Assembly: GCA_963921275.4 (NCBI GenBank) | Contig: OZ001293.3 | Coordinates: 3,552,001-3,616,000, forward strand | Source: an uncultured Hormoscilla sp. | GTDB taxonomy: Bacteria > Cyanobacteriota > Cyanobacteriia > Cyanobacteriales > Desertifilaceae | Direction: 5' to 3' | Length of the DNA: 64,000 nt | Part shown: positions 825 through 56,725 of the stretch, piece by piece | Layout of the letters: the number at the start of each line of letters is the position of its first letter | How positions within the stretch are numbered: the first letter of the stretch is position 1 | Made by a program: the position numbers and the translations under genes | The notes under the pieces: generated by a model | What the model was told of the DNA's origin: nothing | The model's input: the letters and a program-made list of their open reading frames with translations, nothing else | Database searches by the model: none

Positions 825-1650
825 CCCACATCCCGCACGACAGGAAGTAGTACATTTGTAATCCATGTTTTGCGCTTTTTCTGCTACATTTGTAGCAGAA
901 AAAGCGCAAGTATTTATACTCAAAATAAATCTTGAATAAAATGGCTCTCCTGGGTTTTTGGCGATCAATGTATTGCCAGATACAAAATAGGTGGTCTAAA
1001 AAGGCTGAAACCCTTGATTTAGCGTATATATAAGTTTTACTTATCACTATAAGTACAGGAGACCCAATAAAATCTGCCCCAAGACAAGAAAAATGTGTTA
1101 AGGTAGAAAATGAAGAAAGTTAGGACATTGGCACATGGAAATTAGTAATTTAGACCATCTGGGATTAGTGGCAGGAGTAATAGATGAAATAGGCATAGAA
1201 GAAATAATTAACCGGCGATTGGGAGAACACTGGAGAAAATCAGCTCTGGTAAAGTCATAAAAGCAATGATAATTAATGCCTTGGGGTTAATTTCATCTGT
1301 ATCTGTTTGCTAAATTTTTTGAATGCCAAGCAATAGAACATTTGCTTGGAGAAGGGATAAAAATACTTGAATGATGATAGATTGGGCAGGGTCTTTGATA
1401 AATTATCTGACATGGGTATTAGAGAAATATTTGTAGAAGTAGTTTTGTCGGTTTTGAAAAACTATCAAATCTTGATGTAATCAGCAGATTTAGATACATT
1501 TAGATGCAAGTTCATTTCATATTCATGGAGAGTATAAAGTGGAGAATGTAGAGTATGAAGTTGGAGAAGCAGAATCGAGACCGATAAAGATAACTCATGG
1601 ATATTCATTCTTACCATAGACCGGATTTGAAACAATTTACAATGGAGTTA
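825..1650 (+). mobile_element. IS1634-family element remnant (left end plus degraded transposase)
   Basis: NLDHLGLVAGVIDEIGI, YLNDDRLGR, HLDASSFHIHGEY, ITHGYS, HRPDLKQF in broken frames at 1134-1650; end-like CCCACATCCCGCA at 825. Confidence 0.75.
943..1065. mobile_element. MITE with 8-bp TSD AATAAAAT
   Basis: TIRs GGCTCTCCTG/CAGGAGACCC; AATAAAAT at 935-942 and 1066-1073; related sequence near 22195-22255. Confidence 0.7.
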
Positions 1651-2377
1651 TAGCATTTCTCAGAGTTGTGTGCCATATCTTCTTATCAATCACCCCGGCT
1701 TTTAACCATGCCCGTACTTGTTTACGGATTGGTGATGTAGTATTTAATTTTTCGACTAGCGCTTTGTGGTCTATCCTGTCGAAACATTTCGCAATATCTG
1801 CATCTAATACCCATTTGGGTTTCTGTTTGATGCTGCTGAATATTGCTTCAATTGCATCGTGGCATCCCCTTCCCGGTCTGAATCCGTAAGAGTTCCCCTC
1901 CATGTATGCCTCCCATTCTGGTTCTAATACAATTTTGAGGAGCCCTTGAGTCGCGCGGTCGTGCGTTGTGGGTATTCCTAAAGGACGCTTTTCATCTCTT
2001 CTTGGCTTGGGAATCCATACACGACGTGTAGGTTTAGCCTTGTTTGAGATTTCGATTTGCCTTACCAGTTCTAGTCGTTTCTCTGGGGTCAGTGACTTAA
2101 CACCGTCCACTCCTGCCGTTTTTTTACCCTGGTTTTCCTGCGTTACCCGCTGTACCGCTAAACATTTGGCAGCCCGGGAGCTTACCAGTAACCTCTGGAG
2201 TCTGCGAACTCTTTGCTTATTGCCTTCCATTGCCGCTCTGTAAATTCGTTTTTGCAACTTGAAGACTACCCTCTCCAGCTTCTGCCAGGGGATGGCCCTC
2301 CATTCATTCATCGATTCGGAAACCGTGCTCATGACGTATGCATTGCTACTTACAACTTCACAATTGACGTTACCCAT
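1637..2377 (-). pseudogene. Group II intron reverse transcriptase/maturase, 3'-truncated before the YADD motif
   Basis: RVVFKLQKRIYRA, GKKTAGVDG, RRVWIPKP, RPLGIPT, SYGFRPGRGCHDAI, VLDADIAKCFD; breaks off near 1672. Confidence 0.9.
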
Positions 2378-3645
2378 CCATTATAGAAGGGCGTTAGCTT
2401 CTCCACTCAATCTTTCCCAGATACATCCTGCCGAATATAAGCAGATGTTGCGCCTTTGGTGGCTGCTCGTGCGATTCGGTCGCTCATGACCCGCAACAGG
2501 TCATGAGCGACCGGTTACATCAACCGGGAACTTTGATGTTCATGGGGGTTAAATTCCTCCCGCCCAGATGCAGGGTTGACACCGGTCGGAGGTGCTGCGG
2601 AGCGATATCACCGTGGTGCTGAGCGAGGACTCAAATGTAGGATAGCTGGTAGCCTAAATCGGTGACTCCGCTAGGAAAGATATCCAAGGTTAGAACAAGC
2701 GAACGTATAAAAACCTCGTTAACCAAAACCAGCGGAATAAGGCTATATACGCTGGTCCCAAAAGGGGAAGCAGTCAGGGCTAGCTTTGGGCAGTGGCTAG
2801 TCATGTATCCGAAAGACTGTCGGGGAATATTACGGACCTAAAGATATCGTAAAATGACATCAAGGAACGAAGTAACCTCTCGTGTGCTGTCTGGTCTCGA
2901 CCGGCTAGACAAGTTAGATATTAAGCGCAAGCCACGGGAGGAGGGATGTCCCAAAAAGCAAATGCCCAGGGTAATGCCTGGGATAACGCCCGGAGCAATC
3001 CCGGTGATGTCCACAAGGACGCTGACGTGGGACGGATATACCAGGATGCTGTTCAGATTAGTAACTCCACATATATTATGAGCCCGATTTGGACCCCTCG
3101 GGGACTGATGGAGGTATGAGTGAAGGTGTAGGTGAAACAGGGTGACTGCCGTCGGACGGCGATATAAACTAGGCGAGAGACCACAGGTTCCTTGACAACC
3201 GCTCGCTGACCTGCACATAGAAGGAGCCAACAAGTAGACAGTAAGGGCCTACGGTGGGTAACCCCTATAAAGCCTATCCATGACAAGGACCTGGTAACCA
3301 GTAGCCGTGTGCGGTGAAAGTCGCAAGCACGGTTTCGCTCTTGGAGGGTTGGGGAGCGATTCCCAGCTCGACCCCGACCAACCTATCGACCGGTGGTTGA
3401 GAGTATGTATCTGGTTTACTTCGTTCCTCTAGATGATTGGTTGTAGTTTTAGGTGGACTCTGTATGCCGGGTTTGTTGTCAGTGCTTATTGGTCGGTAAA
3501 CGAACCGCCAATGACCGTTATCCTTTCCCGTTTTGGGCCAGCGTGTAAGCCTTTCCGCTGGTTGTTAGTGACGACACTTACAAGCCTTTGTTTTACTCAC
3601 CATGACTACTTACTCGACGGTAACCGGTTTAGGCGAGCCTAAACC
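1672..3645 (-). mobile_element. RT-encoding group II intron remnant (host of the nested intron)
   Basis: Reverse complement of 3380-3645 has domain I motifs (CCAGCGGAAAGGCTTACACGCTGG, CCTAAA...GGAACGAAGTAA) continuing across the insertion into 2378-2468 and the RT ORF. Confidence 0.8.
2469..3379 (+). mobile_element. ORF-less group II (IIB-like) intron A
   Basis: 5' GTGCG; DV TAGCCGTGTGCGGTGAAAGTCGCAAGCACGGTTT 3302-3335; DVI with bulged A; EBS1 GGGCAG 2788-2793 pairs IBS1 CTGCTC 2463-2468; EBS2 ACCAAA pairs TTTGGT; no RT ORF. Confidence 0.92.
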
Positions 3646-4003: not shown

Positions 4004-4513
4004 CTAGATGTCCTTTTCGCCGAATTCGCGGGTCATGTGGTCAAAGGGCTGGTCTACAAAATCCGTATTTTCCACCCCAGCGGCTGCTGCTTGTTCTTTG
4101 ACAATCTCTTTCATAATTTTAATTCCCCGCACCGTGGGGCCAATGGGAACTCCCAGGGAGTTGTAGGTTTCCCGCAAACCGAAGAGCACGCGCTCATCCA
4201 GCAAGTCAGAGTCGCCAGCCACTAGGGCATAGCTGGCATAACGCAGATAATAATCCATATCCCGCAGACAGGCTGCATAGCGGCGAGTTGTATAGGAATT
4301 ACCGCCCGGACGAAGCAGTTCTGGCACTTCCTCATACAACCGGGAAGCTGCCTGCTTCACAATGTTCGCTGCGTTACCATTGATTGCTGCCGCTGTCTGC
4401 ACTCGTGCCAGACCGCTATTAAAATAGGCTTTCAGCCGGTCGATCGCATCTCGGTCTAGATACCGACCGGTAACATCATAAGTGGAAATCAAGCTTGTGA
4501 CTGCGTCCTGCAT
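4004..4513 (-). CDS. apcF: Allophycocyanin beta-18 subunit
   Basis: [25 protein letters not shown]...[25 protein letters not shown]; 169 aa; divergent from glnA. Confidence 0.95.
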
Positions 4514-4593
4514 GCAACTGCTCTCCCAAAACTGCATTTTGTGGTGGTTTACTATTTTCCAGCCCGGTTGTTGCCGTCCCTCCGTCACCAGAG

Positions 4594-4812
4594 ATCGAGC
4601 CTGCTTGACTGGGCTGGGAATAACTGTTAATTTTACTACAAAACACATGATCTATTTTGGGCAATTTTCCAGCTTTTGGCTGGTCCGACTCTCATCCGCT
4701 ATCGAGCCTGCTTGACTGGGCTGGGAATAACTGTTGATTTTACTACAAAACATATGATCTATTTTGGGCAATTTTCCAGCTTTTGGCTGGTCCGACTCTC
4801 ATTTGCTATCGA
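4594..4812. repeat. 107-bp tandem duplication upstream of apcF
   Basis: Units start ATCGAGCCTGCTTGACTGGG at 4594 and 4701, few mismatches. Confidence 0.95.
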
Positions 4813-54056: not shown

Positions 54057-56030
54057 ATGCCAAAAGCCCCAAACATACCACCGGAACCTGAGATTACACA
54101 CGAACAAAGAGAAGCAGCAGAAGCCGAAATCAGGGAAAAGCAAAAAACAGTTGACTATGACACAAAAGAATATCCAGTGGAAGTGCTTGTCCTGAAATAC
54201 CGAGATGGGTTGGATGAAGATACCAATGAGTTGTATATACCCGACTATCAACGAGATATGAATTGGGACGAAAGTCGGCAGTCAAAGTTTATTGAATCTG
54301 TGCGATTCGTTCTAGCCTAACGTGGTCAAACACGGAACGCTAGCCCGGTTTCATTAGCCGGGAACTCTGACCGCATGGGGGTTAAATTCCCCTCCCCCCA
54401 GGTACGGGGGTGACACCGGTCCTCGGTGCTACGAAGCGACATCATCGTGGTGCTAAGCGAGGACTCAAATGTAGGATAACTGGCAGCCTAAGCCGGTGAC
54501 GCCGCTAGGAAAGATATCCAAGGTTAGAGCAGGCAAACATGTGCAAGCCTCGTTATAAGGAACCAGCGAAATAAGGCTATATGCGCTGGCCTAAAAAGGA
54601 AATGGTAGCTAGTATTAGTTTTAGACTCTGGCTAATATAGTACTCAAATAGCTCCCGGGGTATAGTGTGGACCTAAAGGTATCGCGAAATGTTGTTAGGG
54701 AACGAAGTAACCTCTCGTGTGCTGTCCATCAGGACAAGTTAGATGTTAAGCGCAAGCCACGGGGGGAGGGATGGCCCAAGAAGCGAATGCCCGGGGTAAT
54801 TCCTGGGATAACATCTACAGTAATGTAGATGATGCTGGGTAGCCAGCGCTGACGTGGGTCGGTGATACTAGGAAGCTGCTGGAATGAGTAATCCTAAAAA
54901 GCCACGGAACTAATCCGAAACGCAAGTGGAGGATAAGGTATGGATAACTGGTAAAACTGACTTGAAAATGGTGATACTAACGGTTATCAGAACAACCACT
55001 CGCTAAACCAGGAAAGGGAAGAAAAGACAGGCGGCAAGGGCTAACGGAAGTAATTCCTATTAAGTCTACCTATGAAAAGGGCCTAGTACCCAGTAGCCGG
55101 ATGCGGTGAAAATCGCAAGTCCGGTTCCTCAAGGGAGGGTCGGGAAGCGATTCCCGGCTCGACCCCATCCATTTTTCTAGGATTACCTACCCAGATTTTT
55201 GTAGCTGATTTGCGACGAAAGCCAGAAGATGATGAGGAAGATTTAGGTCGGTTAGAAATTGTTGATGGCACCCAACGTATCCGTACATTAAACAGATTTC
55301 TCAATAACGAACTACAGTTGTGTGGACTAGAAAAGCTAAAGAAGCTTAACAACTTCAAATTCAGGGATTTGCCCCTGACAAGACAAAGACGCTTTAACAG
55401 GGCCACGATTCGCATAATTGTGCTGACGAAGAAAGCTGATGAAGAAACACGACGGGATATGTTGAACGCCTCAATACAGGTAGCGTCGAACTAAATGACA
55501 TGGAGAAGCGTCGAGGTAGATCTCCGGGGCCGTTTGTCGATCTGCTTGAAGAACTCGCCAAAACTCCCAAATTTATTAAACTATGTCCTAGATCGGAGGC
55601 ACTTGTTCGCAAAGGGGAACCTGAAGAATTTGTGTTACGTTTTTTTGCCTACTTAAATAACTATCAGAATTTTGACGGGCACGTCAATAAGTTTCTCAAT
55701 GAATATCTAGAAGAACATAACCATGCTGGAATCGACCGAGATGTTATGGGCTCTGAATTTCACAAAATGTTAGACTTTGTTGACAAATACTTTCCCAATG
55801 GATTTAGTAAAACCAAAGGTCATGTCAGAACACCAAGAATACGCTTCGAGGCAATTTCTGTAGGTGTTGCACTCGCTTTGAGAGAAAAGAGCGATCTCGA
55901 ACCAAAATCAATGGCCTGGCTTGACTCACGAGAATTCAAGGAATATACTACCTCAGATGCAAGCAACTCCAGATATAAAGTAATTCGGCGTATTGAATAT
56001 GTTCGCGATGAACTTCTCGGTAAATCATGA
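54057..56030 (+). pseudogene. DUF262 (GmrSD N-terminal/ParB-like) protein interrupted by a group II intron, plus one frameshift
   Basis: IPDYQR, QSKFIES|IFLGLP, IVDGTQR; F-ERLNTG motif broken by a 1-nt deletion near 55463. Confidence 0.85.
54300..55170 (+). mobile_element. ORF-less group II intron B
   Basis: 5' GTGCG; DV TAGCCGGATGCGGTGAAAATCGCAAGTCCGGTTC 55094-55127; DVI; EBS1 AGACTC 54623-54628 vs IBS1 GAATCT; homologous to intron A. Confidence 0.93.
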
Positions 56031-56725
56031 CTAGCACGTTATTTCAGGACTTCAACGAACGCTCTAAGGAAGTGAGCAAATATTTTATGTTCTTGAAGAG
56101 TTTGGAGCAGGGGACTACTAAATTAAGTATGGAAGGTAAAGGGGGAATTACAAAAATTAAAGAAATTGATTCTGAGTTAATTAAGACATTAAAATCCAGC
56201 GGTTTTCTGTTGCTCTATAACCTAGTGGAAGCAACAATGCGAAACGCGATCGAAGCAATATTTAGCGAACTGCAAAGTCAAGGAGTTGACTACGACCAAA
56301 TTAGACCTGAACTCAAAAAAGTTATCCTCAAAAACCTCAAGAAGCGAAACTCCGAAAAAATATTTTCAAGTATAACAGCTATTGCGGTAGATATTATTAC
56401 TGCTGGATTTGAGAAAGAAGATCTTTTTTCTGGAAACGTTGATGCTAGAAAAATAAGAGAGACGGCAACTGAATATGGATTTTCACATCTGACTGATTAG
56501 GCCAAAACAGGTCATGGATTGGATTTATTGATAATCAAGTCAAATAGGAATGATTTAGCACATGGCTATAAATCTTTTGCCGAGGTAGGAAAAGAAAAAA
56601 ACGCAGATGAGTTATTAGAGATTAAGAAGAAGACAGTCAGCTATTTAAGGGAAATACTGCAAAATATTGAACAATATTTATCAAATCAAGAATACTTAGA
56701 TTCATCGACTACAGGGACTCCTTAA
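56027..56725 (+). pseudogene. MAE_28990/MAE_18760-like HEPN nuclease with in-frame stop
   Basis: FLLLYNLVEAT, FSGNVDARKI, RNDLAHG (Rx4H); TAG at 56498-56500, frame continues. Confidence 0.8.

Follow-up and report, generated by a model that had tools for sequence, protein, structure and literature searches.

Within 64,000 nucleotides of an uncultured Hormoscilla sp. (the window, G000:C1:3552001-3616000 of a 7.03-Mb genome), two group II introns, A and B, proved to be members of a large lineage that encodes no RT and whose copies end eight nucleotides past the predicted branch A, mostly in a C followed by a pyrimidine. At the level of sequence, A and B were confirmed as mobile, ORF-less introns of subgroup IIB2, and both were confirmed to end in CC at this +8 position.

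We consider it highly probable that the genus harbors an ORF-less IIB2 lineage that splices at +8, is bound by CL2 RTs in trans, and moves by reverse splicing retargeted through its EBS elements. The ribozyme would splice 8 nt past the bulged A of domain VI, at a site set by gamma-gamma' (a J2/3 purine with the last base) together with EBS3-IBS3 (exon position +1), while either C or A could serve as the penultimate base. Once excised, the RNA would be bound by an RT that co-resident RT-bearing CL2 introns supply in trans, probably via a domain IV segment that resembles the ORF-start region of those introns, and would then reverse-splice into DNA sites picked by EBS1, EBS2, EBS2a, and EBS3. Changes in the loops of these EBS elements would have founded dozens of families.

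Introns A and B and their hosts

An earlier sequence-only reading of the window had placed both introns, and its coordinates were borne out, with Rfam RF00029 matches above the gathering score in each. The two introns share 641 identities over 862 aligned positions. The features of intron A and its host were as follows.

1664-3634, - strand: host of A, a Y-type (RT-bearing) group II intron, 5' part, into which A is inserted antisense; its RT ORF, truncated, at 1637-2377
2456-2468, + strand: target of A, IBS2 (-13 to -9) and IBS1 (-6 to -1), read from the sequence; -14 without EBS2a pairing in the intron A copy
2469-3379, + strand: intron A, ORF-less IIB2 group II intron, 911 nt, GTGCG...GACC; family of 4 full copies
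2720-2726, + strand: EBS2a (2720) and EBS2 (2722-2726); EBS2:IBS2 5/5 Watson-Crick
2778-2802, + strand: Id3 hairpin, with EBS1 at 2788-2793
2828, + strand: EBS3 (T), partner of the +1 A at 3380
2944, + strand: gamma G in J2/3, partner of the terminal C3379
3028-3301, + strand: domain IV, ORF-less; ATG at 3078 (13 codons)
3302-3335, + strand: domain V; AGC triad, AA bulge, first pair U.U
3340-3379, + strand: domain VI; predicted branch A3371, then an 8-nt tail

Those of intron B and its host were as follows.

54057-54299, + strand: host of B, exon 1, GmrSD_N (DUF262) gene, with B inserted in sense
54286-54299, + strand: target of B, IBS2a, IBS2, and IBS1; -14 pairs (IBS2a), IBS2 4/5, IBS1 5/6
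54300-55170, + strand: intron B, ORF-less IIB2 group II intron, 871 nt, GTGCG...ATCC; 138 full copies at ≥95% identity
54554-54560, + strand: EBS2a (54554) and EBS2 (54556-54560)
54613-54637, + strand: Id3 hairpin, with EBS1 at 54623-54628
54663, + strand: EBS3 (T), partner of the +1 A at 55171
54769, + strand: gamma G in J2/3, partner of the terminal C55170
54855-55093, + strand: domain IV, ORF-less; similarity of 54885-54934 to the ORF-start region of RT-bearing introns in the same genome (z 5.1)
55094-55127, + strand: domain V; AGC triad, AA bulge, first pair U.C
55133-55170, + strand: domain VI (its bulge a structure prediction); predicted branch A55162, then an 8-nt tail
55171-56030, + strand: host of B, exon 2, in-frame continuation of GmrSD_N; frameshift near 55461

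Domain IV, described in that reading as tiny, spans about 240 to 275 nt, and the ATG mini-ORF that it assigned to both introns is particular to A; in B that position aligns with AAG, and such ATGs as B does have are nonhomologous.

The host intron of A, once A was removed, gave an alignment of ~87% to other copies, and nine exact empty alleles of A's own site were found elsewhere in the genome. A decayed transposase-like stretch (window 1135-1650, labeled by eye) adjoins the truncated RT of this host, and a direct repeat of ~110 nt, also noted by eye, lies at window 4592-4800, upstream of the ORF at 4004-4648.

The gene split by B carries one base fewer at 55461 than the contig of a related strain, and the same allele was present in run X6. 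The restored DUF262 frame ends after 188 amino acids because the gene is frameshifted further on, and the host operon looks decayed. A contig of run X1 skips 54300-55170 exactly and with an unambiguous joint. The contig comes from a related strain, with 41 differences from the window in 605 aligned letters, and has no intron coverage; for these reasons it is probably an empty allele of the B site rather than spliced RNA. The raw reads of run X8 gave no alignments, and spliced RNA was not observed. The HEPN gene downstream (56027-56500) stops after 157 codons, compared with 211 positions in its family.

A large ORF-less lineage of subgroup IIB2

Searching with a domain V profile derived from the genome itself yielded 469 matches, and bracket parsing paired 368 introns, which together occupy 401 kb, or 5.8% of the chromosome. 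Two types were distinguished. The first, to which A and B belong, contained no RT ORF in any of its 314 paired copies. The second (Y) type, with 78 ends reading A-GTTT-AAY or nearly so, seven bases after the A, comprises introns of mostly 2.4 kb with RTs of up to ~600 amino acids. At 94% identity, 297 ORF-less copies of 740 to 1010 nt fell into 48 families, the largest being that of B (137 copies), followed by one of 70; that of A has 4. The proposal that A and B represent a diversifying, nonautonomous lineage is borne out by these counts and by the covariation of EBS1, EBS2, EBS2a, and EBS3 with their targets. A tree of domains I to III (39 families) recovered the lineage as one clade (support 100), within which ends with penultimate A and C were interspersed, implying at least 5 changes.

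Both introns start GTGCGATTC, which agrees with the 5' GUGYG consensus, and their domain V, with its AGC triad and GNRA loop, forms 8/9 and 5/5 pairs and has an AA rather than AC bulge. The 3' AY consensus is matched neither by A and B nor by 326 of the 380 lineage ends; since AY is a consensus with a known exception, a CC end is no bar to group II membership. EBS1, EBS2, and EBS3 pairings place the introns in subgroup IIB. Available parts of two reports name two marks of IIB2, a GUGCGAUUC 5' end and additional stem-loops at the domain I base (PMC4649490, PMC8643678); A and B have the former, together with a sequence insertion before the conserved domain I block.

Three of four congeners carried the lineage with the same pattern (46, 31, and 113 C-pyrimidine ends, against 322 here). 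One domain V pattern matched 348 times in this genome, the highest count among 401 genomes of the order; the congeners had 138, 119, 99, and 2 matches and the other 396 genomes at most 62, a comparison in which drafts collapse repeats. Three genomes outside the genus (G028, G433, and G601) had 62, 45, and 45 matches. No long match to B was found outside the genus among 26 other genomes, or among plasmids.

B also inserts into itself, and 58 of 137 B copies are identical. At intron positions 830 and 618-631, B copies showed clustered multibase substitutions (TC to GA in 19 copies; GAA to TCC), and their single changes had a strong C-to-T/G-to-A bias. Four perfect head-to-tail junctions were seen (three ATCC|GTGCG and one TAAT|GTGCG, at G000:C1:5447656-5450268, 824934-826675, 524521-525495, and near 5243295), and one further junction without the first five bases recurred in run X6; these are possible circle or template-switch products. 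In families F2, F9, F3, and F8 (e.g., G000:C1:221733-222667), with 12, 3, 7, and 3 copies, some of them in sense within ORFs, a domain V arm was replaced or mispaired; domain V is intact in the two largest families. Short dispersed repeats, which we take to be of the GCGCAGCG type, were inserted in intron loops and in the linker between domains V and VI (families F3 and F9 and G000:C1:836580). Contig C3 of the assembly, 31 kb at 17.6% G+C, is unlike the rest.

Targeting by covarying EBS elements

The claim that each EBS1 fits its own target was upheld (6/6 pairs in A and 5/6 in B, counting G-U). The Id3 stems said to present these loops did fold around 9-nt EBS1 loops in minimum-energy structures, but were no more stable than shuffled sequences (z -1.5 and -0.6). 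The covariation predicted for other copies held across families. Using 43 of the 48 families (five were dropped as chimeric or gapped), EBS1 paired with -6 to -1 (score 4.55 versus 2.18 ± 0.16 permuted; 0/3000), with shifted controls at chance, and EBS2 paired with -13 to -9 (3.74 versus 1.89 permuted; 0/300). EBS2a paired with -14 in 37 of 42 families (six of the 48 were dropped from this comparison), versus 14.8 permuted (0/5000), and not with -13, -15, or -16. This last pairing was looser among B's own sites, where -14 is A in 54 of 116, and is missing at the site of A. B itself is permissive, with 116 distinct sites.

According to the available part of one report, EBS2a-IBS2a is essential for homing, is stabilized by the RT, is absent from immobile organellar ORF-less introns, and is kept in the trans-mobilized introns of Thermosynechococcus elongatus (PMC8643678). 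The covariation seen here therefore points to RT-assisted retrohoming.

Candidate helper RTs and the origin of the lineage

Among RT-motif ORFs, 72 of 76 fell in a single cluster, that of the Y-type introns. The resident RTs comprise subfamilies of 600, 576, and 607 to 609 amino acids. We infer that the lineage is mobilized in trans, most likely by these co-resident RT-bearing CL2 introns, and the 58 identical B copies imply that the helper was active recently. The genome holds no close, intact maturase of the kind the sequence-only reading had envisaged; the candidates are RTs of distantly related co-resident introns. With 14 families in the comparison, identity over domains I to III was 46 to 57% (about 53%) to the resident Y-type introns and 42 to 52% (about 49%) to the clade of +8 introns described below. 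The lineage, forming a separate clade at 46 to 57% identity, is thus no close ORF-deletion derivative of a co-resident intron. A close RT-bearing parent was looked for in this genome and four congeners, and none was found.

The start of domain IV resembles the Y-type ORF-start region in several ORF-less families (z 5.1 in B, 2.9 in A, and up to 14 in others), and the ATG of A at 3078 sits at the position of the ORF start in co-resident RT-bearing introns, a weak match. The resemblance is uneven: Y-type introns outscored outgroup introns for 24 of the 40 families scored, and the 70-copy family showed none. In a quick tree without a confirmed CL2B reference, the resident RTs grouped with plasmid RTs of Nostoc PCC 7120 and Tolypothrix PCC 7601, which, judged by organism and size, may correspond to CL2A rows in the table of PMC4244168, a source available in part.

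ORF-bearing cyanobacterial introns at Spirulina, Lyngbya, Oscillatoria, Crocosphaera, and Planktothrix loci end TCG-A-CCCC-TAAT, followed by a varying base. In a quick tree, the RTs of +8 introns formed a clade that excludes the resident RTs (SH-aLRT 99), one member of which (L105) reads as +7. Four RT-bearing introns of Planktothrix (L093, L094, L110, and L111) read TACT and one of Tolypothrix (L100) reads ACTCTACC, with apparent ends, judged from sequence alone, of ACT (+8) or ACC (+7). The +8 spacing is thus shared with RT-bearing relatives, and a penultimate C probably occurs outside the genus as well.

These relatives bear on the best-surviving alternative, which we nonetheless judge improbable: that the helper is a closer partner, since lost, unassembled, or extrachromosomal (for example, an RT of the +8 CCCCTAAT clade), or that the RNA needs little help from proteins to move. 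The lineage and the ORF-bearing CCCCTAAT clade have domain VI and the +8 tail in common, and they group together when domains V and VI are included (SH-aLRT 96), an analysis that contains the trait's own columns; the low identity of the lineage to the resident ribozymes points the same way. On domains I to III alone, however, support for that clade was 76 to 79, and grouping with the Y type was not rejected (p-AU 0.56). No RT of the CCCCTAAT clade was found in this genome, where the best partial match was a Y-type fragment, nor among the 12 best-scoring RT loci of the four congeners, all of which start like Y-type introns. The recent helper activity implied by the identical B copies also weighs against a lost partner, and the resident CL2 RTs stay the preferred helpers.

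Host genes and a probable need for splicing

With the B host frameshifted and A lying antisense, the two hosts in the window are no test of a need for splicing. Elsewhere in the genome, a GACC-ended copy with intact domain V (G000:C1:848632-849545, locus L161) splits an adenosylcobalamin-dependent ribonucleotide reductase, of which exon 1 matches RNR_Alpha and exon 2 scores 634 bits on TIGR02505 (cutoff 340). A frame of 1162 amino acids is restored only at the CC end, versus 115 and 141 amino acids at the others, and an ungapped empty site is present in four congeners. No other ribonucleotide reductase was found with PF02867 and PF13597 in this genome, which is 96.7% complete, so that a second enzyme could be missing from the assembly. 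Splicing at CC is thus probably required in this organism, as judged from gene content. An intein that includes a LAGLIDADG domain lies in exon 2 as well.

A TAAT-ended copy at G000:C1:1800238-1801136 splits the only enolase. Other genes interrupted in sense are release factor 3, by a copy with an AT end, and RecJ, methionine synthase, and glutamate synthase (the last at G000:C1:5580677-5581511), by copies with CT ends; these three have paralogues. Such sense insertions with kept frames argue for accurate splicing.

Also improbable is that the lineage spreads with RT assistance while most copies are splicing-dead, or splice poorly at the CY end, and knock out their host genes. Both hosts in the window are broken anyway, many insertions are antisense or within other mobile elements, some families have a mispaired domain V, and the four perfect head-to-tail junctions hint at circles; the CC end of RmInt1 also gives imperfect fidelity, according to the available part of PMC4238363. 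Against this stand the full-length frames that ribonucleotide reductase, enolase, and release factor 3 keep across their sense insertions. Retrohoming, moreover, requires a working active site, and domain V is unimpaired in the two most numerous families. Accurate splicing of the lineage at its +8 end is accordingly the reading that we favor.

A 3' end at the +8 position

The earlier reading had preferred GACC and ATCC to canonical AY ends and had counted eight nucleotides after the branch A; both points stood. The last two bases were CC in 138 of 138 B copies, with a following A in 96, G in 26, C in 10, and T in 6, and the nine empty alleles of the A site and the X1 contig put the ends of A and B at the same +8 register. 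Its two supporting arguments fared less well. The AT (55168) and ATC (55169) ends of B do fail to restore the DUF262 frame, but an end at 55167 restores it as the CC end does. The host hairpin at A does not separate the candidates (-13.9 kcal/mol for the CC end versus -14.5 and -14.7 for two shorter ends).

For 265 sites, the 14 bases on each side were joined at six trial offsets and searched across the genome. An exact empty allele was found for 39, in every case with the intron end 8 nt past the bulged A, although 6 of the 39 were tandem junctions and not true empty sites. A tolerant search found 84 sites, 71 that fit the +8 end only and 13 that also fit a shorter end; in four of these 13 the shorter end scored equal or better, which counts against the +8 end. 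Among 229 isolated copies in sense, 23 restored at least 100 codons on each side at the +8 end, whereas ends 1 or 2 nt shorter did so in 0 and 1.

Covariation among the 43 families agreed with this register. The column most complementary to the last base was the J2/3 purine (gamma-gamma'), Watson-Crick in 42 of 43 families (19 G-C and 23 A-T), and the column most complementary to the base after the intron was EBS3, which paired in 39 of 43. Inspection by eye revealed no covariation across families for a longer stem that could take up the additional base of the tail. The 380 lineage ends, all following A-CCCC, read ATCC (147), GACT (109), GACC (57), TAAT (42), and others; 326 were C-pyrimidine and 48 A-pyrimidine, with a penultimate C in 327, A in 49, T in 4, and G in 0. 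What the lineage conserves is the +8 register, ending N-N-(C/A)-Y; CC is therefore one state beside CT, AT, and AC.

It is very improbable that the introns have a canonical AY end, followed by a C or CC that is a conserved target base or was added during insertion. The canonical spacing between branch and 3' end in group II introns allows A to be read as ending AC, and for B the Rfam model stops at AT 55168. The available part of PMC4649490 describes an intron circle whose junction carries an additional C. At the DNA level this reading is contradicted: the extra bases are absent from the empty alleles, the +8 base covaries with gamma and its 3' neighbor with EBS3, and 48 members end AY at the same +8 position. 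Boundary callers built on AY would shift these ends by 1 to 2 nt and break host genes. Least probable of all is an inflation of copy number by assembly artifacts: tandem and self-nested copies exist, but B lies at 115 to 116 distinct flanks that match its EBS loops, three congeners have their own C-pyrimidine ends (31 to 113), and B sequence occurs in contigs of two other runs.

Comparison with known systems

A further-reaching reading, which we regard as doubtful, is that the lineage is SINE-like: an old ORF-less ribozyme lineage, half diverged from the resident RT-bearing introns, that hijacks noncognate RTs via captured or mimicked domain IV starts, no longer keeps strictly to AY at the 3' end, and has invaded essential genes, namely those of the only ribonucleotide reductase and the only enolase. 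If so, the cell would rely on RTs to splice hundreds of introns as general factors in trans, and would offer a glimpse, in a bacterium, of the step toward a common splicing machinery.

The closest functional parallel is offered by TeI3/TeI4 of T. elongatus, subgroup IIB1 introns with 28 copies in six families, all 85 to 100% identical, whose driver RTs were demonstrated by assay to act in trans, as the available part of PMC2882425 describes. Like TeI3, the introns described here are ORF-less, fall into EBS-defined families with good EBS/IBS pairing, insert into other introns and IS elements, retain what may be a domain IV relic of an ORF start, and would use driver RTs in trans, assayed there and deduced here. 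They differ from TeI3/TeI4, as far as the latter are covered in that source, in belonging to IIB2, in number (380 3' ends in about 48 families), in sharing ~53% identity with the RT-bearing introns of their genome, and in their CY ends. By analogy, the lineage appears to work like the TeI3/TeI4 system but is not a member of it.

A CC end has already been described for RmInt1 of Sinorhizobium meliloti, in which gamma-gamma' and EBS3-IBS3 define the splice site; in mutagenesis a penultimate A was about as good as the wild-type C, and G and U were worst (PMC4238363, available in part). That mutant spectrum fits the natural frequencies found here. Unlike RmInt1, which has its own RT and was presented in that text as a lone exception, the present introns show CC, CT, AT, and AC lineage-wide in ORF-less IIB2 members. 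With the ORF-bearing cyanobacterial IIB2 introns they share a GTGCGA(T/C/A)TCGTT start, the same domain VI base, and the +8 register; those introns, in contrast, encode an RT, mostly keep AT, and are ~49% identical over domains I to III.

Arthrospira platensis NIES-39 is likewise a cyanobacterium with many group II introns, many of them lacking an RT: at least 150, 79 without RT (PMC2853384), or 101 by another count (PMC8919778), in the available parts of these reports. Here, 460 3' ends were counted, 380 of them from one ORF-less lineage, although the counting methods differ. According to reviews, as far as available, bacteria seldom have ORF-less group II introns, and those that occur are close relatives of their helper introns. 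In the portion of the literature open to our search, neither CY or +8 ends in IIB2 introns nor a comparable swarm was found. What is new is the scale (the published high is about 150) and the lineage-wide CY end; the distance from the presumed helpers is also worthy of note. For studying both 3' splice-site rules and RNA-guided targeting, the 40-odd families offer a covariation set provided by nature.
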